This document shows positions 2,670 through 49,081 of a stretch of DNA of 64,000 nucleotides, piece by piece. A model generated the notes under the pieces. It was not told where the DNA came from. It was given only the letters and a program-made list of their open reading frames with translations, and searched no databases. The translations under genes and the position numbers were made by a program. The stretch's first letter is position 1, and each line of letters starts with the position of its first letter. Source of the stretch: Gemmatimonadota bacterium. Lineage in GTDB: Bacteria > Gemmatimonadota > Gemmatimonadetes > Palauibacterales > Palauibacteraceae. The stretch spans positions 10,567-74,566 of the forward strand of contig JBATJK010000179.1 of the NCBI GenBank assembly GCA_049668445.1. The letters run 5' to 3'.

Positions 2670-3578
2670 ATGGGGTTCTTGATATCGAATCGCGTCGTTC
2701 CCGTTTGGTGCGGCGCCTTGATTCTGGCAGCAACGGCATGCGGAGACTCGGATGACGGCGGGAGTACCGATCCCGGCGCCCGCGGAGATTTTGCCGTCGT
2801 TACGGTCACCACGGGCGTAGAGTTCGACACCGACCGGTACGAGATCCGGGTCAACGACATCTTCGCGTCGCTCATCGATGTCAACGACAGCGTGATCTTC
2901 ACCAGCCGCGCGGTCGACACTTACTCGGTCGAGCTGGCCGAGGTCGCGCCGAATTGCGCCGTGAGCGGTGACAATCCTCGACCCGTCCAGGTCACCGCAA
3001 ACACCCAGACCGCTACCACCTTCGAGGTGACCTGCTTCGTCACCGCGGGCGTTCTCCAGGTGGTGACCGCCACGAGTGGAGAAAACCCGGACGACGCCTA
3101 CACGCTGGCGGTGGACGGCCTGGATGCCGGAGTGATGGGAGCCAACGACACGGCTCGCACGGCGGATCTCCAGACCGGAGAACACACCGTGCGGCTGGGA
3201 GACATCGCCCTGAATTGCCGCCTCATCGGGGACCCCGAACGAACAGTCTTCGTGCCGAGCGAGGACATGATCGAAACGAAGTACGAAGTGGTGTGCACCG
3301 ACCAGGTCGGCAACTTGAGGCTCGTCACCTCCACCACCGGGCTGTTTCCTGACGCGGACGGGTACGAGATCGTCATCGAGTCCGGAAGTCCGATCACGAT
3401 GCGGAATACGGAAGTGAAGACCGTGGGTTCGGTCGCGGCCGGAGTGACCCAGGTACGGCTGCTCGAATCGAGCGTGGCTGACAACTGTACGCTGCAGGGA
3501 GAGAATCCCCGAACGCTCGACGTACCGGCCGGTGGACTGATAGACACGCTGTTCGAGGTGACCTGCGTAGTTCCCTGA
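2670..3578 (+). CDS. Secreted lipoprotein with three tandem ~90-aa repeats (hypothetical)
   Basis: Lipobox LILAATACG; three repeat units each with a conserved NC...(E/Y)V(T/V)C cysteine pair (FEVTCFVTAG / YEVVCTDQ / FEVTCVVP). Confidence 0.6.
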   Translation: MGFLISNRVVPVWCGALILAATACGDSDDGGSTDPGARGDFAVVTVTTGVEFDTDRYEIRVNDIFASLIDVNDSVIFTSRAVDTYSVELAEVAPNCAVSGDNPRPVQVTANTQTATTFEVTCFVTAGVLQVVTATSGENPDDAYTLAVDGLDAGVMGANDTARTADLQTGEHTVRLGDIALNCRLIGDPERTVFVPSEDMIETKYEVVCTDQVGNLRLVTSTTGLFPDADGYEIVIESGSPITMRNTEVKTVGSVAAGVTQVRLLESSVADNCTLQGENPRTLDVPAGGLIDTLFEVTCVVP

Positions 3579-28988: not shown

Positions 28989-30428
28989 GTGCGCGACTCC
29001 GACCTCCTTCGCTGCTCCTTCCGTCGGACTGTGAGAGCCAGCCTGGCCGTGCTGGGGCTTGCCGCTTTTGCGGGCGGCTGTGTGGACGAAGACACCGTGT
29101 ACAACGATCGGCCGTTCGGCGACGATCCGCCGGCCTCAGCCGGTGGCATGCTGGGATACGTGCAGGGACAGGCGGGAGAGCCGACGTGCGCCCAATGTCA
29201 CGCCACGCCGAGCGCGAGCTGGACCACGACGGCGCACGCCGGTGCGTGGAACACTCTTCAAGACAGCGGGCACGCGCAGGAATTCTGCGAGGCCTGCCAC
29301 GCGGTCAGTCAGCTCGGCAACGCGGCGACCGAGCCCGCCGGCTGGACGTCCACCGGGGATTCGAGGTACGTGGACGTGCAGTGCGAGGCGTGCCACGGGG
29401 CCGGTGAAACGCACGTGGCCAATCCGGAAGCCTCTCAGCCGCTGCCCTCGCTCGCGGTTGGCGCCGACCTTACGAACGGCTGCGGTGAGTGCCACAACGG
29501 CACGCACCATCCGTTCGTCGAGCAGTGGTCGTTGTCGAAGCACTCGGAGGTAGTCACTTTCGCCGCCAGTCGGCTCGAGTGCGCCGGCTGCCACCGGGGC
29601 CAGGGGACGCTGCTCGCATGGGGGGTCCGCTCCAACTACCTGGAGCGGGACTCTGAGGAGCCCCTCGCGGTCGTATGCGGCGTCTGTCATTCGATGCACG
29701 ACAACACGTTCGAGGGTCAGCTCAGGTTCCCGGTCCAGACGCCGGACGTCGAGGTTCACCTTTGCGCGCGGTGCCATAACCGGCGTTCCGTCGCGGATCC
29801 CAACTCCAGTCACGGCCTCGAGCCGCACGCTCCGGAGACGGCACACCTGGTGGGCGAGTCCGGCTGGGTACCCCCCGGATCGGGACTGGCCCTTGGTTCG
29901 ATCAGCATGACGCACGGATCGCCAAGCAATGAGAAGCTGTGCGCAACCTGCCACGTGGCCATGTACACGGTCACGGATCAGGCCACGGGGGAATTCGAGT
30001 TCCAGGCCGTTGGGCACACGTTCGAGTCAATCCCCTGCGTGGACGAGAGCGGTATCCCGAACGGCGAAGCGGACTGCGCCGTCGATGCCGGTGCCCGATC
30101 GTTCGCTGGCTGCGTGACCTCGGGCTGTCACTCGACCGCAGAATCCGCCGCCGCACTCCTGAACCTCCGGGCCGACAACATCGCGCTTCAGGTGGCGGTC
30201 CTGCTCGACCTGCTGGAGCAGGTGGATCCCAATCTCGATGAACCGGGTGGTGAGATCGACGCCACCGTCGCGACGTTCACCGTCGCCGAGGGCGGCTTCT
30301 TCAACTACAGCCTGGCGACCCATGGAGGCGACGTGTACGGGTCCACGACGCACAACGCTCCGTGGATGAGGGCGTTGCTGGAGGCCAGCATCACAGCGGT
30401 GCAGGACGAGTATGGAGTGAGTCCGTAA
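28989..30428 (+). CDS. Multiheme c-type cytochrome lipoprotein (8 canonical CxxCH plus one CxxxxCH)
   Basis: GTG start at 28989 after an AGGAGA RBS; lipobox LAVLGLAAFAGGC; heme motifs CAQCH, CEACH (x2), CGECH, CAGCH, CGVCH, CARCH, CATCH and an atypical CVTSGCH. Confidence 0.8.
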   Translation: MRDSDLLRCSFRRTVRASLAVLGLAAFAGGCVDEDTVYNDRPFGDDPPASAGGMLGYVQGQAGEPTCAQCHATPSASWTTTAHAGAWNTLQDSGHAQEFCEACHAVSQLGNAATEPAGWTSTGDSRYVDVQCEACHGAGETHVANPEASQPLPSLAVGADLTNGCGECHNGTHHPFVEQWSLSKHSEVVTFAASRLECAGCHRGQGTLLAWGVRSNYLERDSEEPLAVVCGVCHSMHDNTFEGQLRFPVQTPDVEVHLCARCHNRRSVADPNSSHGLEPHAPETAHLVGESGWVPPGSGLALGSISMTHGSPSNEKLCATCHVAMYTVTDQATGEFEFQAVGHTFESIPCVDESGIPNGEADCAVDAGARSFAGCVTSGCHSTAESAAALLNLRADNIALQVAVLLDLLEQVDPNLDEPGGEIDATVATFTVAEGGFFNYSLATHGGDVYGSTTHNAPWMRALLEASITAVQDEYGVSP

Positions 30429-30579: not shown

Positions 30580-30969
30580 TCAGCCGGCCGCCACGTGGCA
30601 CATGGTGCACGTGGCGTCTGCCCGCCCTTCGTGGCTGGCGGGAGCCGCAGGCATCCCTTCCATCGCACCCGAATGGCACATGGCGCAGGCCTCACGTCCA
30701 GCGATCTCGTGCGGAGTCGCCGAAGCGGCACCGGTCTGCATCTCCGAGTCGGCGGCATGGCACAACAGGCACGTGTCCAGCTCTCGACCCTCGTGGTCCG
30801 CCGGGTTGGCCGGGATCCCTTCCATGGCACCGGAATGGCACATGGTACAGTTCTCCTTGCCCGCCAGGTCGTGCGACACGACCGTCGGCTTCTCCTGCGC
30901 AAACGCTGGAGCCGCGGCAAGCGCCACGAACAGCGCCGTACCGGCAGCAATCGACATTAGACGGTTCAT
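30580..30969 (-). CDS. Small periplasmic tetraheme c-type cytochrome with an internal tandem duplication
   Basis: Signal peptide MNRLMSIAAGTALFVALAAAPAFA; four CxxCH (CTMCH, CLLCH, CAMCH, CTMCH); two 33-aa repeats CxMCHSGAMEG(I/M)PAxPAxHEGR...C..CH, also visible as a DNA-level repeat. GGAGA RBS. Confidence 0.75.
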   Translation of the reverse strand: MNRLMSIAAGTALFVALAAAPAFAQEKPTVVSHDLAGKENCTMCHSGAMEGIPANPADHEGRELDTCLLCHAADSEMQTGAASATPHEIAGREACAMCHSGAMEGMPAAPASHEGRADATCTMCHVAAG

Positions 30970-31243: not shown

Positions 31244-33250
31244 ATGCTCCTCCAACGACCCCCAATCGCTCGTTGGCTGATGATGCTCACGTGCGTCCTC
31301 CTGTCGGCCTCGCCGTTCGCTCCGCCGCTTCGCGCCCAGGAGACGACCGACGATCCAAACCGCACCTGCTACATGTGCCACGGCGACCCTGAGAACTTCG
31401 CGAACCGGGAGGACGGCCAGCGACTCATCGTGACACAGGACGAATTCGCCGGCTCAGTGCACGGTGGTTTCGGGTTCGCGTGCACGACGTGCCACCGCGA
31501 CTTCGCCTTTCCGCACCCGGAGGAATACGTGCCCGTGCGGTGCGGCGCCTGTCACGGTTCCGAGGACCGGCAGTACGGCGAGAGCGTGCACGGATATGCC
31601 CTGGCGCGTGCCAACGAACGAGCTCCGACGTGCGCCGGGTGTCACGGAAAGCACGACATACGCCGAAGCGACGACCCGGAAAGCCACACCTATCACACGC
31701 GCGTCGCGGAGACCTGCACGGACTGCCACAGCACCGCCGGACTGCTCACGGACCAGTATCTGAAGCTGCCGTCGCCCGCTGCTCAGTTCGCTCAGTCCGT
31801 CCACGGCGAAGCCGGTGAGGCCGGCGACATGGGCGCCGCGACGTGTACAGACTGTCACGGCGTTCACGATCTCAGGGGACACAACGACCCCCTCTCGCGC
31901 ATCAATCGGTTGAACGTCTCTGAAACCTGCGGTGCCTGCCACCAGGAGATCACCACCGACTACGACCGGTCGATTCACGGGCGGGCGCTGGCGGCCGGAA
32001 TCGGCGACAGCCCCACGTGCACCGATTGCCACGGCGAGCACCTGATCCTGCATCCGTCCGACCCGGACGCCGGAACGCACGCCAATCACATGGCGGCTGA
32101 CCTGTGCGGCGATTGCCACGACGATCCGGTGATCGTGGCCAAGTACAGTCTTCGAGACGACGTGGTCCACTCGTACGCCGACAGCTACCACGGGTGGGCG
32201 ACCGGACGAAACCACGAGCATGCGGCCACGTGCGTGAGTTGCCATACGGCTCACCTGGTGCTGCCGACGGCCGACCCGGAGTCGTCGGTCTCCGAGGCGA
32301 ACGTGGTCGCCACGTGCCAGCAATGCCACGAAGGAGCGAGCGCGGAGTTCGCCGCCTCGTACGACCACGCCGCGGCTTCCGCGGCCACGAACAAGGGCCG
32401 ACGGATCGTCACCGCCCTCTACATCGGACTCATCATCGTGGTGATCGGAGGCATGGCACTCCACAACGCGCTCATTCTCAACTACTACCTGGTCGAGAAG
32501 CGACGAAGGGAACGGCAGGAGCGCGGCGTCGTGCGGTTCGACAAGATCCAGATCGTGCAGCATATGACGCTGGCCGTGTCATTCATCCTGCTCGTGATCA
32601 CCGGGTTCGCCCTGCGCTACCCTGATACCCTATGGGTGAAGTGGACGGGACTCACCTTCCTCAGCGAGCCGGTTCGGTCGTGGAGCCACCGAATCCTCGG
32701 AGTCGGCCTGATCCTGTTCTCGGTCGTTCATGTCCTCTACATCCTGTTCGCCCGCCGCGGACGCGACGAGTTCAAGGCCATGCTGCCGAACTTCCAGGAT
32801 CTGAAGGACTTCATCGACAACATGCGCTTCCACACGTGGGGCACGAAGCGCAAACCGCGCTTCGGACGCTACGACTACACGCAGAAGGCGGAGTACTGGG
32901 CCCTCGTTTGGGGTACCGCCCTGATGGCCATCACCGGGCTGGTACTATGGTTCCCGGTTCTGGCCACCACGTGGGCTCCGGCCTGGGTGGTCTCCATCTC
33001 GGAGACGATCCACTTCTACGAGGCCTGGCTGGCGATGCTGGCGATCGTGGTGTGGCACTTCTTCTTCGTCATGGTGCACCCGGATGTCTATCCGATGAGC
33101 TGGATCTGGCTCACCGGGAAGATGCCCGAGCACGAGGTGCAGGCCGTACACGGCCGCTGGTACGATGAGGAAGTCCAGGACATGCTCGACGCGCTTCCGC
33201 CGGGTGAAACGACGGCGGGGCTACCGGACCGTCGAGCCGACGCAGGCTGA
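31244..33250 (+). CDS. Fusion protein: periplasmic 11-heme c-type cytochrome + C-terminal diheme cytochrome b membrane domain (HydC/FdnI/Ni-hydrogenase cyt b-like; CbcL-like)
   Basis: Signal peptide; 11 CxxCH motifs; C-terminal five TM helices with conserved His ligands (ALHNAL, VQHMTL, HRILG...VVHVLY, WHFFFVMVHP). GGAGA RBS before the Met at 31244. Confidence 0.8.
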   Translation: MLLQRPPIARWLMMLTCVLLSASPFAPPLRAQETTDDPNRTCYMCHGDPENFANREDGQRLIVTQDEFAGSVHGGFGFACTTCHRDFAFPHPEEYVPVRCGACHGSEDRQYGESVHGYALARANERAPTCAGCHGKHDIRRSDDPESHTYHTRVAETCTDCHSTAGLLTDQYLKLPSPAAQFAQSVHGEAGEAGDMGAATCTDCHGVHDLRGHNDPLSRINRLNVSETCGACHQEITTDYDRSIHGRALAAGIGDSPTCTDCHGEHLILHPSDPDAGTHANHMAADLCGDCHDDPVIVAKYSLRDDVVHSYADSYHGWATGRNHEHAATCVSCHTAHLVLPTADPESSVSEANVVATCQQCHEGASAEFAASYDHAAASAATNKGRRIVTALYIGLIIVVIGGMALHNALILNYYLVEKRRRERQERGVVRFDKIQIVQHMTLAVSFILLVITGFALRYPDTLWVKWTGLTFLSEPVRSWSHRILGVGLILFSVVHVLYILFARRGRDEFKAMLPNFQDLKDFIDNMRFHTWGTKRKPRFGRYDYTQKAEYWALVWGTALMAITGLVLWFPVLATTWAPAWVVSISETIHFYEAWLAMLAIVVWHFFFVMVHPDVYPMSWIWLTGKMPEHEVQAVHGRWYDEEVQDMLDALPPGETTAGLPDRRADAG

Positions 33251-33274
33251 TACCGGGCAGGCCGATTGCCCCCC

Positions 33275-33308
33275 GGGTCGGGCAACCCCCGACCCACGGG
33301 TTGTTGTG
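33275..33308 (+). terminator. Putative intrinsic terminator after the first cytochrome c/b fusion gene
   Basis: GGGTCGGG-caacc-CCCGACCC hairpin followed by GTTGTTGTG; a lower-GC 200-bp intergenic region follows, presumably the promoter of the next gene. Confidence 0.4.
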
Positions 33309-33511
33309 CCCACGAGCGTTGTGTCATTCTGACCCATTCCGAGTCCTTATCACGGTTCGGCAAGACTTGGACACACGCATATCTCGTTGTTCGGTGTAGC
33401 TTTGCCGAATTGTGTCCAGTTCTTGCAGGTTGTTCGTGCGGCGTTGCGGGTCTCAGCATTCGGGGTCCGCTCCGCCCTCGTGTAGGGACGACCACTCCTT
33501 CCGGAGGTCCA

Positions 33512-36322
33512 ATGCGGATTCGGAAGTTCAGAATAGCGAAGCGACTGACCCCGCTGGCCGCTGCGGCCACGCTCTTGATATTGGCGGCCCCTGCCGCCGC
33601 GCAGGAAGTCAACTGTCTGATGTGTCACGAGAACCCGGCGTTCTTCCAGAGCCAGGAGAACGGCGAGCGCCTCGTGGTCACCCAGGAATCGCTGTCGGGC
33701 TCGGTACATGGCAGCCTTCGTTGCCAGGACTGTCACGCGGGACTCGAGTTCCCACACCAGGCAGACGCCCCGGCGCCCAGTTGCGGGCAGTGCCACGGGA
33801 GACAGTCGCGCCAACACCAGCAGTCGCTGCACGGGCAGGCCGCCGCCCGCGGCGATGCGCTCGCACCGGAATGCGAGGACTGTCACGGCACGCACGAGAT
33901 CCTGTCGAGTCGGGAGTTGGCTTCGCCGACATCGGTGATGAACATCCCGATCCTGTGCGGCGAATGTCACCAGGAAGGCACGGAGGTATCGGAGCGAATA
34001 GACATTCCGCAGGACAGCATCCTGCACAACTACTCCCTGTCCATCCACGGGGCCGGCCTGTTCGAGCGCGGCCTGTCGGTGACCGCCGTATGCACTTCCT
34101 GCCACACGTCGCACTTCATCCTTCCGCACACGGATCCCCGCTCGAGCATCCACGTGGACAACGTCGCCGGGACGTGCATGGCATGTCACGCGCGGATCGA
34201 GGAAGTGCACACGCAGGTGATCGAAGGGCGACTGTGGGAAGAACAGCCCCATATGATCCCGGCTTGCGTGGACTGTCATGAGCCGCACGAGATTCGTCGC
34301 GTGTTCTACGATGCGGGGGTCGCGAACGCGGACTGCCTGGCCTGCCACTCCGATCCGGAACTCATGGGCACGGATTTCGACGGAAACAGCGTCTCGATGT
34401 TCGTGGACGAGGGCCCTTACAGCCTGGGGGCGCATCAGGGTACGACGTGCGCGCAGTGCCACACCGACGTGAGCGTCGCGTACGAGGAGCGTCCTTGCGA
34501 GACCCTCTCCTCGGCGGTCGACTGCGCGATCTGCCACGCCGGACCGGTCTCCGAGTACCAGGCCAGCAGCCACGGCACACTGGCCGCGGAGGGTGTGACC
34601 GACGCTCCCACGTGCCTGGATTGCCACGAGAAACACGCCACGGGGGACAACGACAATCCGACCTCGCCGACGTATGCCCGGAACGTCCCCGAGCTGTGCT
34701 CTACCTGCCACCGCGAAGGGGAAGCGGCGGCCCAACGCATCCAGCGCGAGGGCGCCGACATCGTCGCGGGCTACGAGATGAGCATCCACGGCAAGGGACT
34801 GCTTGAGAGCGGACTCGTGGTCACGGCCACCTGCAGCGACTGCCACGGACCTCACTCGGAGCTTCCGGCCAGCGACTCGACTTCGAGGGTCAATCCGAAC
34901 AACGTCGCCGCCACCTGCGGACAGTGTCACCACGGGATCGAGGAGACGTTCCGCGAGAGCGTCCACTATCCGGAGAACGGGCTCTACACGGCCGAAAGCG
35001 AGCACCAGTATCCTACCTGCGAGGACTGCCACACCTCGCACACGATCGGTCGGACGGACCGGGATGATTTCCGGATGCTCATGATGAGCCAGTGCGGGCG
35101 CTGCCACGAGGACGAGTCCGAGACGTTCTTCGAGACGTACCACGGCAAGGTCTCACGCCTGGGCGGAGCGCGGGCGGCCAAGTGCTATGACTGCCACGGA
35201 ACACACAACATCCTCCCGAATTCGGAGGTTGGTTCGACCCTCAGTCGTGACAACATCCTGGAGACGTGCGCGCAGTGTCACCCGGCCGCGAACGAGAAGT
35301 TCACGGGTTACCTGACGCATGCCACGCACCACGATCCGGACAAGTACCCGTGGCTCTTTCTCGCCTTCTGGGCCATGACGGGCCTGTTGGTCAGCGTGCT
35401 CACTTTCTCGCTCATCCACACCGGCGCATGGCTGTACCGCCTGTGGCGCGAGCCGGAGCACTGGAAGGGCCACGTCGAGGCCGTGGGCGAGGAGCGAAAG
35501 CAGCTCTATCGCCGGTTCACACAACGGCAGCGGATCATGCACCTGGTGATGTTGCTCAGTTTCATGCTGCTGGCCGCGACCGGCATGGCTCTCAAGTTCG
35601 CGTGGATGGGTTGGGCCAAGCTGTTCTCGCGAATGGTCGGCGGATTCGAGGCGATGGGCATCCTGCACCGCCTGGGGGCCGTGGCGCTGATTACCCTTTT
35701 CATCGTTCACCTGGTGGACGTGCGCAAACAGAAGCGCTCGGCCGGGCAGACGTGGAAGGAGTACATCTTCTCCCGAGACTCGCTGATGTTCAACAAGAAC
35801 GACGGACGCGAGTTCGTGGCCTCCATCAAGTGGTTCTTCGGTAAGGGAGAACGACCGAACTACGGCCGCTTCACCTACTGGGAGAAGTTCGATTACTTCG
35901 CCGTCTTCTGGGGGATGTTCATCATCGGCTCCACTGGACTGTTCCTGTGGTTCCCGGAGCTCTTCACGACCGTGCTGCCCGGGTGGTTCGTGAACGTGGC
36001 CACGATCATCCACAGCGATGAGGCGCTGCTGGCAGTGGCGTTCATCTTCACCATCCACTTCTTCAACACGCACTTCCGCCTGGACAAGTTCCCCATGGAT
36101 CCCGTGATCTTCACGGGCCGGGTTCCACTGGAGGAGCTGAAGCGCGACAAGCCGATGGAGTACGAGCGCATGAAGGCGGAAGGAAAGCTGGAAGAGCGGC
36201 TGGTCGATCCGCTTCCGAAGGAATTCGAGACTACCGTTCGCATCTTCGGCTTCACGATGCTCGCGATCGGGCTCACGATCGTGGGGCTCATTCTGTACAC
36301 GATGCTGTTCGGCTACAGATAG
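33512..36322 (+). CDS. Fusion protein: periplasmic 19-heme c-type cytochrome + C-terminal diheme cytochrome b membrane domain (paralog of 31244..33250)
   Basis: GGAGG RBS; signal peptide MRIRKFRIAKRLTPLAAAATLLILAAPAAAQE; 19 CxxCH; C-terminal TM domain with His ligands. N-terminal region is homologous to the upstream paralog (CLMCHENPAFFQSQENGERLVVTQES... vs CYMCHGDPENFANREDGQRLIVTQDE...). Confidence 0.8.
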   Translation: MRIRKFRIAKRLTPLAAAATLLILAAPAAAQEVNCLMCHENPAFFQSQENGERLVVTQESLSGSVHGSLRCQDCHAGLEFPHQADAPAPSCGQCHGRQSRQHQQSLHGQAAARGDALAPECEDCHGTHEILSSRELASPTSVMNIPILCGECHQEGTEVSERIDIPQDSILHNYSLSIHGAGLFERGLSVTAVCTSCHTSHFILPHTDPRSSIHVDNVAGTCMACHARIEEVHTQVIEGRLWEEQPHMIPACVDCHEPHEIRRVFYDAGVANADCLACHSDPELMGTDFDGNSVSMFVDEGPYSLGAHQGTTCAQCHTDVSVAYEERPCETLSSAVDCAICHAGPVSEYQASSHGTLAAEGVTDAPTCLDCHEKHATGDNDNPTSPTYARNVPELCSTCHREGEAAAQRIQREGADIVAGYEMSIHGKGLLESGLVVTATCSDCHGPHSELPASDSTSRVNPNNVAATCGQCHHGIEETFRESVHYPENGLYTAESEHQYPTCEDCHTSHTIGRTDRDDFRMLMMSQCGRCHEDESETFFETYHGKVSRLGGARAAKCYDCHGTHNILPNSEVGSTLSRDNILETCAQCHPAANEKFTGYLTHATHHDPDKYPWLFLAFWAMTGLLVSVLTFSLIHTGAWLYRLWREPEHWKGHVEAVGEERKQLYRRFTQRQRIMHLVMLLSFMLLAATGMALKFAWMGWAKLFSRMVGGFEAMGILHRLGAVALITLFIVHLVDVRKQKRSAGQTWKEYIFSRDSLMFNKNDGREFVASIKWFFGKGERPNYGRFTYWEKFDYFAVFWGMFIIGSTGLFLWFPELFTTVLPGWFVNVATIIHSDEALLAVAFIFTIHFFNTHFRLDKFPMDPVIFTGRVPLEELKRDKPMEYERMKAEGKLEERLVDPLPKEFETTVRIFGFTMLAIGLTIVGLILYTMLFGYR

Positions 36323-36470: not shown

Positions 36471-37925
36471 ATGACTGTCCATCGCCGGCCGTTCTTCTCG
36501 TTTCTCGCGTGCGCCATGGTGTGGCTGCCCTCTGCGGCCCAGGCCCAGGGCATACGCGGAGACGTGAGACTCAACTGGGGCTGGATGCAGCTCCAACCGT
36601 TCGCACAGGACTCGGTCCCCGAGGGCGATGTCTCGGGGTCGGGCCTCCAGCGGCAATTGGCGAACGGGACCGTGGTGTCGTGCATCGAGGGCGATTACTG
36701 CCGCTGGTACGAGAACAACGGCCAGCGCCAGGACATCATGCCCTTCACGCAGGACCTGCGATTCGCCGGGTGGACCGGCGTCCAGGGTCTTTCGTTCCAC
36801 GGGCAGATGCGCACGCGCCTGGGCAGTGACGACCTGTGGCCGCGCACCGATCAGAAGTTCGACCTCCTCACGGGCTACCTGAGCTACAATCGCTCGGCTT
36901 TCCAGATCAAAGCCGGCCGGATGTACAGGGCATCGGGACTCGGCTACTACAACTTCGACGGCGCGTCCGCCGTGTGGCGTGGACTCGGATGGCTGTGGGT
37001 CGAGGGATATGCCGGCTGGAGCCTGGCGCGTGGCGTCAACGCACCGCGGAACGGCAGCCTGTACCAGGATGCCGATCTCCTGGCCACGGACCGACGCGGC
37101 TATCTCTTTGGTGGCGAGCTCGGCTTCCGTGGCGGCAAGGTGTTCTCCGGCTCGGCGACCTACCAGCGCGAGCTCCGCACCGATGAGCTGGCCCTCTATT
37201 CGGAGAGGGCAGCGGTAGACCTCAGGGCCCTCGTGGGCGGCTGGGCATTCGATGGCGGAGCCAGCTACGACTTCGCGTACGACCAGCTCAACGACGCTCG
37301 AGTCCGGATCACGACGCCGCAGGTGCTGGGGATCAAGTTTGCCGCTCAGGCCAGGCACTACACCCCGTTCTTCGACTACTGGACCATCTGGAGCGCCTTC
37401 TCTCCCGTCGGCTTCAACGAGGGGCGCCTTTCAGGCACCTGGACCTCCAGGAGCCTCCCGCTGCTCGTCGAGCTCGGCGGGGCGTACCGCGAGTACGAAG
37501 ACACGAACGCGGGCCCCTCGAACACCACCATCCGCAAAGACGGCTACCGTGGCTTCGGCCGGATCTACTGGAGCCCGGACAAGTGGTACGTGGACGCCCG
37601 CTACCGCGCGGAAGACGGATTCGGAGGCTCCCGGTACGGTGGCGACCTGGTCCTGGGCCGCTACCTGGCCACGGGCTCTGCCTCCTACGTGGCCCTGCGA
37701 GGCACCGCGACGGAGACCCTGTACGAGTTCCGAGAGGGTGAGCGTTACGTGGTTGGCGGCGCCGTCGAAGGATCGTACGACATCACCAAGGCCAACCTGA
37801 CGCTCGACGCCAGCCTCGGTTTCTACCAGATCGAAGACAAGAACCGGCCCCTGGCCGATACCTGGACAGAAGGGCGCGCGAGCGTAGGATTGCGCTGGCG
37901 CTTCAACACTGGAGGTACCCGATGA
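36471..37925 (+). CDS. Putative outer-membrane beta-barrel (porin-like) protein
   Basis: Signal peptide ending AAQAQG; alternating amphipathic beta-strand pattern rich in Y/G/W throughout; aromatic residue near the C-terminus (RWRF); stop overlaps the start of the downstream cytochrome gene. Confidence 0.55.
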   Translation: MTVHRRPFFSFLACAMVWLPSAAQAQGIRGDVRLNWGWMQLQPFAQDSVPEGDVSGSGLQRQLANGTVVSCIEGDYCRWYENNGQRQDIMPFTQDLRFAGWTGVQGLSFHGQMRTRLGSDDLWPRTDQKFDLLTGYLSYNRSAFQIKAGRMYRASGLGYYNFDGASAVWRGLGWLWVEGYAGWSLARGVNAPRNGSLYQDADLLATDRRGYLFGGELGFRGGKVFSGSATYQRELRTDELALYSERAAVDLRALVGGWAFDGGASYDFAYDQLNDARVRITTPQVLGIKFAAQARHYTPFFDYWTIWSAFSPVGFNEGRLSGTWTSRSLPLLVELGGAYREYEDTNAGPSNTTIRKDGYRGFGRIYWSPDKWYVDARYRAEDGFGGSRYGGDLVLGRYLATGSASYVALRGTATETLYEFREGERYVVGGAVEGSYDITKANLTLDASLGFYQIEDKNRPLADTWTEGRASVGLRWRFNTGGTR

Positions 37926-38869
37926 GGCGGCTCGCTTACCTGGGCGCCCTCGTTCTGACGGTCGGCGCCGGAGCGCTGTTCGCGGCCTCCCGTGGATCTT
38001 TCGACTTCCCGCACGAAAAACACGCGGCCCTTGGTGGGGCCGGGTGTGAGAGTTGCCACGCGGGCATCTACTCCGGAGACGCCGCGAGCAACGTCTCGGT
38101 TGACCCGGCACTGTGCTCGGGATGCCATAACGGACAGGCGTTCCCCGAGGTGGGGTACACGGGATACAAACCGCAGGAAAGTGGCCTGAAGTTCCAGCAT
38201 GCCACGCACCCGAAGCTCGGCTGCCAGAACTGCCACGGCGTTCCCGGCGGCGAGGGCGACATGGCCGTTCAGGCCGCATCGGGAGACACGTGCCTGGCCT
38301 GCCACGGCAACGGGGCGACCGACCATTTCGAGGTCGGCATCAACCCGTGCGAGACCTGTCACTACGATCCGGCGCCCGGGCACACGCCTGACTTCATGAC
38401 GCAGCATGCGACGGCGGCAGCAGCGGGACTCCCGAACTGCACGCAGTGCCACAGGGAAACGTTCTGCGTCGACTGCCACGACGGCCCGACGAACCCGGGT
38501 ACGCAGTACCATCCGGCGAACTTCGTCACCCGCCACAGCGCGGAGTCGTGGGCCGCTCCGATGGAGTGCTCCGAGTGCCATTCGAGGGAGGTCTTCTGCC
38601 GCGACTGCCACTCGAACCAGGGAGTCGCGCAGGATGGCAGCCAGAACGGTGGCTACCACGACGGAGTGGCAAACTGGCTGCAGCAGCACGGCGCGGCCGC
38701 GCGGCAGGGCATGGAAAGTTGCACCACCTGCCACCAGCAGACCGAGTGCCTGGCCTGTCACTCGGCCAGGGAAGGATGGCGCGTGAATCCGCACGGACCG
38801 GACTTCGATCCCCAGCGGGCGTCCGACCGCAGCACGCAGTCGTGCGCAATCTGTCACACGGGATACTGA
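37922..38869 (+). CDS. 12-heme c-type cytochrome (secreted), translationally coupled to the beta-barrel gene
   Basis: Signal peptide MRRLAYLGALVLTVGAGALFAASRG; 12 CxxCH in 315 aa; ATGA start/stop overlap with the upstream gene. Confidence 0.8.
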   Translation: MRRLAYLGALVLTVGAGALFAASRGSFDFPHEKHAALGGAGCESCHAGIYSGDAASNVSVDPALCSGCHNGQAFPEVGYTGYKPQESGLKFQHATHPKLGCQNCHGVPGGEGDMAVQAASGDTCLACHGNGATDHFEVGINPCETCHYDPAPGHTPDFMTQHATAAAAGLPNCTQCHRETFCVDCHDGPTNPGTQYHPANFVTRHSAESWAAPMECSECHSREVFCRDCHSNQGVAQDGSQNGGYHDGVANWLQQHGAAARQGMESCTTCHQQTECLACHSAREGWRVNPHGPDFDPQRASDRSTQSCAICHTGY

Positions 38870-48589: not shown

Positions 48590-48937
48590 CTACTCCCCGA
48601 ATACTCCAAACAACGCCAAGCCGAGTGTCCAGACAGCCGAGCCGGCCGTGGCGCCCAGTAGAGGCCCGGTCTGGAACGCCGTCGCCGGCTCACCCCTTTG
48701 CAGGACCGATCCGTCCTCACTCGACAGGTGAGTCGCAGCCACGATCGCCGTGAGGGAACAGACGGCCACCAGGACTAGCAGCTGGCCGGCAGCTCTCAGA
48801 CGAACTGACTCACGTTCACTCGCTAGTTCGAAGGGTACTGCCTACCCCTCCGCCGAGGTTACTCCCAGGATCAGGATGAGGATGATCGCGATGACGATCA
48901 CCGCCAACCAGTGAATCCGGTTCTTCGGATCGAACAC
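48590..48937 (-). pseudogene. Small three-TM membrane protein gene interrupted by an in-frame TAG (31-aa N-terminal ORF + 83-aa in-frame continuation)
   Basis: GTG start at 48937 with GGAGAGGAGG RBS: VFDPKNRIHWLAVIVIAIILILILGVTSAEG-TAG-AVPFELASERESVRLRAAGQLLVLVAVCSLTAIVAATHLS...GPLLGATAGSAVWTLGLALFGVFGE*. The second part has no start codon or RBS of its own. Confidence 0.35.
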
Positions 48938-49081
48938 GCGATACCTCCTCTCCACTTCCGGGCGCGGCGCGTTACGAATTGCAGTCGTTCTCGCGGCCCT
49001 GCCGCCTTCCTGGAGCGCGTCTCCGCAGCGAAGCGAGGACTAGCGCGAAAGGAAGGCGGCAGGTGTCGTGTATGCGTCTGC

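Follow-up and report, generated by a model that had tools for sequence, protein, structure and literature searches.

Two tandem genes encoding cytochrome c–cytochrome b fusions

The window analysed here, a stretch of 64,000 nucleotides from contig JBATJK010000179.1 of a Gemmatimonadota bacterium (Palauibacterales; Palauibacteraceae), contains two tandem genes on the forward strand, hereafter A and B, each of which encodes a large multiheme cytochrome c fused to a diheme cytochrome b of the inner membrane. Protein A (31244–33250, 668 aa) comprises a signal peptide, an 11-heme c domain (aa 32–383), a transmembrane (TM) helix designated TM0 (aa 384–415), a b domain (aa 431–613) and a cytoplasmic tail. 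Protein B (33512–36322, 936 aa) follows the same order, with a signal peptide, a 19-heme c domain (aa 31–610), TM0 (aa 614–644) and a b domain (aa 667–857), and ends in an extra C-terminal TM helix (aa 911–929). A preliminary description, made from the letters of the window and a list of its open reading frames, had reported two genes with 11 and 19 hemes at this place; both are present, and both counts are exact, with 11 CxxCH motifs in A, 19 in B and no CX3–4CH or CxxCK variants in either protein. The two N-termini are of the Sec type, ending A-x-A/Q-E, and the homologous N-terminal modules that had been noticed are indeed carried by both proteins, as CYMCHGDPENFANREDGQRLIVTQ in A and CLMCHENPAFFQSQENGERLVVTQ in B. 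In base composition the genes are in keeping with others of this window (65% GC), the GC content at third codon positions being 0.83 for A and 0.82 for B.

In BLASTP, A and B align over 626 aa with 30% identity (E 1e-86), and the aligned stretch extends through the membrane domain. The genes are paralogous, as had been proposed, and at this identity the paralogs are old and anciently diverged. A duplication introduced by assembly, which the preliminary description had named as a possible source of error, is excluded, because the proteins are only 30% identical, the longest DNA repeat in the A–B region is 38 nt (it codes for CxxCH), and the same tandem recurs in independent metagenome-assembled genomes (MAGs).

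Heme c domains

When 120 homologs of each protein were compared, the A family showed 11 conserved histidines outside the heme motifs for its 11 hemes, with no conserved methionine, and the B family showed 21 such histidines for 19 hemes. This pattern fits bis-histidine ligation of every c heme in both proteins, the arrangement reported for the periplasmic domain of CbcL (PMC9129911). Within the c domain of B, one half aligns to the other with 36% identity over 246 residues (E 3e-47), the CxxCH spacings repeat in step with this internal duplication, and the c domain of A aligns to two separate parts of B; B is therefore an A-like protein in which an 8-heme module has been duplicated in tandem. 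Most members of the B family have 19 hemes, and variants with 21 and 23 are present as well.

Membrane-embedded cytochrome b domains

The C-terminal domains of A (32534–33082) and B (35510–36082), both on the forward strand, match PF01292 (Ni_hydr_CYTB) at 77.3 bits (E 1.6e-21) and 39.7 bits (E 5.6e-10) respectively, each exceeding the curated cutoff of 30.1 bits. The predicted heme-b ligands are H440 (TM1), H482 (TM2), H590 and H605 (TM4) in A and H677, H719, H834 and H849 in B, and they align to H18, H57, H155 and H169 of FdnI. All four are invariant in 121 of 121 sequences of the A family and likewise of the B family. With the Pfam domain above its cutoff in both proteins and these bis-histidine ligands conserved, the fusion of a multiheme c domain to a diheme b domain holds, and so does the ligand conservation on which the preliminary description had made it depend.

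The nearest solved structure is FdnI, the cytochrome b556 gamma subunit of Escherichia coli formate dehydrogenase-N (PDB 1KQF/1KQG, chain C), found by A alone at E 6e-8 and by a profile of the A family at E 4e-14. Like FdnI, proteins A and B have a four-helix diheme b domain with aligned ligands; unlike FdnI, they have no FdnG/FdnH partners, carry an added N-terminal linker helix and a fused multiheme c domain, and presumably pass electrons in the reverse direction. The TM4 ligands, by unaligned numbering, are 15 residues apart in A and B versus 14 in FdnI. The preliminary description had suggested about five TM helices in each protein. This number stands for A, where hydropathy and an AlphaFold2 model both give the long linker helix (aa 384–415) plus the four helices of the bundle, and has to be raised for B: hydropathy gives five hydrophobic C-terminal segments in B, including the extra helix, and a TM4 helix around the invariant H834 and H849 would follow from homology to A, bringing the predicted total to six.

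Two further TM histidines are invariant in both families, one in the linker helix (A H407, 32462–32464; B H636, 35417–35419) and one in TM2 (A H496, 32729–32731; B H733, 35708–35710), all on the forward strand. FdnI has histidine at neither site, its TM2 residue being M71. When 150 cluster representatives were scored at the two positions, both histidines were present in 87, the first alone in 14, the second alone in 15 and neither in two, counts in which the alignment of TM0 is the less certain, while the four canonical ligands stayed histidine. Since the two extra histidines are lost independently of each other, we disfavour a third b heme bound between them; they may instead belong to the quinol site or a proton path, or serve a structural role.

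The resemblance to FdnI raises the question of whether A and B are simply gamma subunits of a formate dehydrogenase or a [NiFe] hydrogenase. The source annotations do call them 'formate dehydrogenase gamma subunit', FdnI is the nearest structure, and the best NCBIfam match of both is the formate dehydrogenase gamma family TIGR01583; but the scores, 62.4 bits for A and 36.4 bits (E 5e-9) for B, fall far below the equivalog cutoff of 115.85 bits. In both proteins, moreover, the fused 11- or 19-heme domain stands in the place of catalytic subunits, and no FdnG/FdnH or hydrogenase genes occur in the cluster around them, the neighbours being cytochromes, an outer-membrane barrel, a CDF transporter and a DPP-IV peptidase. 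On scores and gene context we reject this assignment, which we hold to be very improbable.

Relationship to the CbcL/MtrH/MtoC family

An N-terminal periplasmic c domain with all-bis-histidine hemes, followed by a HydC/FdnI-like diheme b domain with five or six TM helices, is the architecture of CbcL (GSU0274), and by this architecture A and B are members of the CbcL/MtrH/MtoC family, whose genes, like A and B, are often clustered with other cytochrome and porin genes. CbcL was therefore the right comparator in the preliminary description. CbcL proper has nine hemes, as against 11 in A and 19 in B. Genetic and biochemical data are available for CbcL alone: it is needed for acceptors below −100 mV, and its c domain has an Eapp of −194 mV (PMC9129911).

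Zhong and Shi (2018, PMC6295460) catalogued CbcL/MtrH/MtoC homologs of 416–1034 residues, with 3–23 CxxCH motifs and mostly six TM helices, from 15 phyla including Gemmatimonadetes. Most members are thus reported to have a sixth TM helix, which protein A does not have. Among the entries of their Table S2 is MAF27600.1, a protein of a Gemmatimonadetes bacterium (951 aa, 19 motifs, six TM helices), whose CxxCH motifs are offset from those of B by 17–22 residues throughout, so that the spacings match within 5 residues; the table also contains many other 19-heme proteins of about 920–950 aa as well as 11-heme forms of about 700–730 aa. The CxxCH spacing of A resembles that of 11-heme entries in the same table from Lacunisphaera/Opitutus. 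Both architectures were thus already catalogued in 2018 and the proteins themselves are ordinary family members; with homologs of 3–23 hemes on record, the exceptional size once ascribed to the 19-heme fusion disappears. We also note, as a lead only, that machine-read and visibly corrupted CbcL fragments from the supplement of PMC9129911 align to B (YWEKFD-FAVFWGM) with scores of 73 and 109, and better to B than to A.

A six-gene cluster with an outer-membrane module

Genes A and B belong to a group of six, flanked by a CDF transporter and LeuRS upstream and by a DPP-IV peptidase downstream; because these flanking genes are housekeeping genes, we treat the six as a discrete cluster. This context, which the preliminary description did not use, is what is new here and gives the chief hint of function.

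Downstream of B, on the same strand, are two genes that appear to form an outer-membrane module. The first (36471–37925) encodes a 484-aa outer-membrane beta-barrel of about 22–24 strands with a signal peptide, for which no match was found in Pfam or NCBIfam. Its family comprises 173 proteins, nearly all of the named members being Gemmatimonadota, and in most loci that have the barrel a multiheme cytochrome gene lies directly 3′ of it. Here that gene (37922–38869) encodes a 315-aa cytochrome with 12 CxxCH motifs, and its ATG overlaps the stop codon of the barrel gene. The 12-heme protein has weak matches to DmsE and to the GSU2203 decaheme family, far under cutoff (TIGR03508, 22.5 bits versus 192.2). 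Barrel and 12-heme cytochrome remain adjacent in relatives even when they lie upstream of A (L020; relatives are cited by locus number where they must be told apart). We regard the barrel as a candidate for an undescribed porin family serving electron conduits, and the 12-heme protein, by analogy with MtrA or OmaB, as a candidate periplasmic cytochrome inserted into it.

A large outer-membrane barrel gene coupled to a gene for a periplasmic multiheme cytochrome is what generically defines a porin–cytochrome module, and the cluster has this combination. It shares with MtrCAB of Shewanella and with the OmbB–OmaB–OmcB porin–cytochrome complex of Geobacter the pairing of a barrel with a dense periplasmic multiheme cytochrome and the nearby presence of a possible lipoprotein cytochrome; it differs from them in a barrel of about 22–24 strands and in a cytochrome with 12 hemes rather than 10 or 8. 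The order of barrel and then periplasmic cytochrome is also that of ombB and omaB. Membership of the two genes in MtrAB/PioAB was considered and set aside, the barrel having no Pfam or NCBIfam match and the 12-heme cytochrome scoring far below cutoff.

Upstream of A lie two more cytochrome genes. The farther one (28989–30428, forward strand) encodes a 479-aa protein with eight CxxCH motifs and one CVTSGCH, whose signal peptide ends ...LAAFAGGC, a possible lipobox. It has a weak Pfam match to MtrC/MtrF domain II/IV (E 1.5e-9) and is a candidate outer-surface lipoprotein cytochrome; in Gemmatimonadota relatives a homolog lies 1–6 kb upstream of the pair and directly adjoins it only in L005–L009. 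Its CVTSGCH, a CX4CH motif (30111–30131, aa 375–381), may bind a ninth heme. The nearer gene (30580–30969), on the reverse strand, encodes a c3/c7-type cytochrome of about 129 aa, counted from the start MNRLMS..., with a signal peptide, four CxxCH motifs and Pfam matches to Cytochrome_C7 and Cytochrom_CIII. This tetraheme protein, which has a homolog near the cluster in relatives, is a candidate periplasmic shuttle.

The order A, B, barrel, 12-heme cytochrome is kept in Gemmatimonadota loci L001–L010, the barrel and its cytochrome being upstream of A in L020. Some of these loci are richer than the window: in L001 (2884–7857), L002 (2434–7618) and L004 (2557–7559) the stretch between the tetraheme gene and A also encodes a 21-heme cytochrome, a Rieske-like protein and a cytochrome b (PF00033), and downstream L002 and L004 add an 8-heme cytochrome, a 4Fe-4S protein and another cytochrome b. 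By its gene content the window holds a reduced version of this cytochrome island.

The same neighbourhood bears on whether the heme-c chains might only distribute or store electrons within the periplasm, supplying nitrite or N2O reductases or acting as a capacitor, without any transfer out of the cell. Palauibacterales encode denitrification steps (PMC10469786), and in most loci outside the Gemmatimonadota the long form occurs with no recognisable barrel gene. In the window and in Gemmatimonadota relatives, however, genes for an outer-membrane barrel and an overlapping 12-heme cytochrome accompany the pair, joined in the window by that of a possible lipoprotein cytochrome, and no gene for a periplasmic reductase is found in the cluster. 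A purely periplasmic role seems to us improbable.

Distribution and the pairing of short and long forms

Proteins like A and B are numerous. At E ≤ 1e-10, B has over 4,100 matching proteins and A over 3,100, both figures being minima; the top 120 matches are 58–98% identical to B, nearly all over their full length, and 52–92% identical to A, also at full length. The top matches of A, of B and of the barrel carry the names Gemmatimonadota or 'marine benthic group'. A scan of species-representative genomes placed relatives of B in at least 594 genomes, from Gemmatimonadota, Acidobacteriota (Thermoanaerobaculia, Bryobacteraceae, Holophagales), Woeseiaceae, Eisenbacteria, Zixibacteria, Ignavibacteria and Bacteroidota. 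The nearest locus in that scan (L001, CAXMRU010000218.1; 82% identity to B) has the same operon and is labelled as an Akkermansiaceae MAG; because all other close relatives are Gemmatimonadota, this contig is probably mis-binned.

We fetched 80 loci and counted a pair wherever a second CbcL-like gene lay within 10 kb of the long one. A short form (9–13 hemes) accompanied the long form (19–23 hemes) in 38 of the 80, and in 19 the two genes were directly adjacent on the same strand. Paired loci span Gemmatimonadota, Woeseiaceae, Thermoanaerobaculia, Bryobacteraceae and a MAG of the FCB group. The short gene precedes the long one in Gemmatimonadota and follows it in Woeseiaceae and Thermoanaerobaculia. 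The two overlap as TGATG in L001, are separated by at most 35 nt where the long gene comes first, and are about 56–259 nt apart in other Gemmatimonadota, so that the 261 nt of the window stand at the long end of the range. Among the reversed adjacent pairs, with a long form of 19–21 hemes and a short form of 11, separated by 35 nt or less or overlapping, are those at 3375–8101 of L028, 9911–14672 of L034 and 9605–14948 of L047. Upstream of the pair in L034, on the other strand, is a trio of two 10-heme proteins and a 706-aa protein that resembles a separate Mtr-like module. We found neither the conserved short–long pairing nor the Gemmatimonadota barrel described by Zhong and Shi (2018, PMC6295460) or elsewhere in the literature searched.

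The preliminary description had suggested that A and B are two quinol oxidases or reductases tuned to different potentials, as they may be. Their recurrence as a pair invites the suggestion that, rather than independent alternative oxidases, they are partners, either in one pathway or in a hetero-oligomeric inner-membrane complex whose 19-heme arm could span the periplasm toward the outer-membrane module. Pairing in 38 of 80 loci across several phyla, half of these pairs directly adjacent on one strand, the frequency of stop–start overlaps or gaps of 35 nt or less, and the age of a pair now 30% identical all speak for it. Against it, the long form stands alone in many loci that were covered for 10 kb to either side (for example, L011, L013, L022, L025 and L033), and FdnI-type subunits have no known heterodimers. 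We consider a partnership of this kind possible but doubtful. Its strongest form, in which A and B are an obligate, co-evolving pair in a single complex and the 19-heme arm bridges the periplasm to dock on the barrel and 12-heme module, appears decidedly improbable to us; if true, it would amount to a shuttle-free wire, continuous from menaquinol out to the cell surface, and this in a phylum for which mineral respiration is not known.

The range of hosts also touches on the direction in which electrons move. They could be taken up from extracellular Fe(II), a cathode or a partner cell, with A or B, or both, acting as quinone reductases in the manner proposed for MtoC. Fe(III) reducers and Fe(II) oxidisers alike have members of the CbcL/MtrH/MtoC family, with no sequence feature that separates them (PMC6295460), and homologs are frequent among Woeseiaceae and other lineages of sediment chemolithotrophs. 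Genes for carbon fixation or of the Cyc2 type are, however, absent from the window, electrons would have to run uphill from Fe(II) to menaquinone, and Palauibacterales have been described as facultatively aerobic organoheterotrophs (PMC10469786). Electron uptake is thus, in our estimation, an unlikely function for the pair.

A proposed route from menaquinol to the cell surface

We propose that A and B are probably menaquinol:multiheme-cytochrome oxidoreductases of the CbcL/MtrH/MtoC type that feed an extracellular electron-transfer conduit encoded in the same cluster. In this scheme the Sec signal peptide would export each protein, placing the 11- or 19-heme chain in the periplasm, and the TM0 linker helix would bring the polypeptide back to the cytoplasmic side, where it enters an FdnI-like four-helix bundle holding two b hemes stacked across the membrane. 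On the model of FdnI run in reverse, and of CbcL genetics, menaquinol would be oxidised near the cytoplasmic-side heme b, and its electrons would traverse the membrane by way of heme bC and then heme bP to reach the c-heme chain. From there they may pass to the tetraheme periplasmic carrier, to the 12-heme cytochrome embedded in the barrel and finally to the surface lipoprotein cytochrome, with insoluble Fe(III) or Mn(IV) oxides as the likely terminal acceptors. An FdnI-type loop running in this direction dissipates membrane potential rather than building it, which would suit acceptors of low potential, as discussed for CbcL.

Several points weigh against this proposal. In the literature searched we found no experiment that ties 11- or 19-heme homologs, or any member of the Gemmatimonadota, to metal respiration. 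Because Fe(II) oxidisers also contribute members to the family (MtoC), sequence does not reveal which way the electrons flow (PMC6295460). Beyond the heme motifs, Pfam and NCBIfam searches detected no homology of the barrel or the 12-heme cytochrome to MtrB/PioB or MtrA/DmsE, and the barrel resembles generic porins more than it does MtrB. Family membership was assigned by architecture, and CbcL of Geobacter sulfurreducens itself entered the comparison through the machine-read fragments alone. Finally, the b domain of B matched no PDB chain when searched by itself, and a profile of the B family did not reach FdnI at E ≤ 0.01; the assignment of this domain accordingly rests on Pfam and on homology to A, and it is more divergent than the b domain of A.

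On the other side stand the short–long pairing, the Gemmatimonadota-specific outer-membrane module and the rest of the cluster, and because of these we find it plausible that the cluster encodes a complete electron conduit in a phylum where mineral respiration has not been demonstrated. Gemmatimonadota are abundant in soils and marine sediments, and no member has been demonstrated to exchange electrons with minerals; the cluster offers a concrete genetic basis for such a capacity in a marine benthic, Palauibacterales-like lineage. Candidatus Carthagonibacter metallireducens is a case in point, since the same operon is present in its MAG, in the conserved order (L009), while its name rested on a hydrogenase and not on cytochromes (PMC10469786). 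More broadly, the recurrence of short and long CbcL-type proteins as a pair across phyla is relevant to the question of why bacteria retain several quinol oxidases in the inner membrane.

The A–B spacer and regulation

The 261-nt spacer between A and B (33251–33511, read on the forward strand) contains a hairpin, two conserved blocks and a ribosome-binding-site-like CCGGAGGTCC ahead of the ATG of B. The preliminary description had proposed an intergenic terminator and an AT-richer region here, and from these a separate regulation of the two genes. The AT-richer region is real, the GC content falling to 52–54% at 33300–33450, and so is the hairpin, with 8 bp of GC pairing at 33275–33295. As an intrinsic terminator, however, the hairpin does poorly: its U tract is weak, a terminator scan did not call it, its folding is no better than that of shuffled sequence (z −1.46), and it is absent from relatives. 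We therefore reject a terminator between A and B. Separate regulation is weakened both by the poor hairpin and because relatives often show an overlap or a gap of 35 nt or less; in L001 there is no spacer at all, the stop of A and the start of B overlapping as TGATG.

Some regulation in front of B nevertheless appears possible, because two spacer blocks are conserved in relatives and one of them has an inverted copy. The first, TGTGTCATTCTGACCC (33320–33335), is kept in L002–L004; the second, GTGTCCAGTTCTTGCAG (33412–33428), has an imperfect inverted copy at 33358–33374 on the reverse strand, 54 nt upstream. The sequences common to L002–L004, whose B proteins are 68–69% identical to that of the window, are TGTGWCRTYYTGACCC and GTGTCCNNTTCTTGCAG, and these occur nowhere else in the window. 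The blocks may be a promoter or an operator for the 19-heme gene. A sigma-54 reading of the conserved GTGTCC...TTGCAG block was dropped, the GG of the −24 element being missing by eye.

Other features of the window

Rfam and tRNA scans found nothing in the window, including the segment at 47000–49000, where the GC content is 58–59% and a 353-aa open reading frame (47507–48568) has a hydrophobic N-terminal segment. At 42399–46617 lies a transporter operon of the GldA/GldF/GldG kind, unrelated to A and B, which encodes an ABC ATPase, an ABC-2 permease fused to ABC_transp_aux, and a DUF4340 protein.

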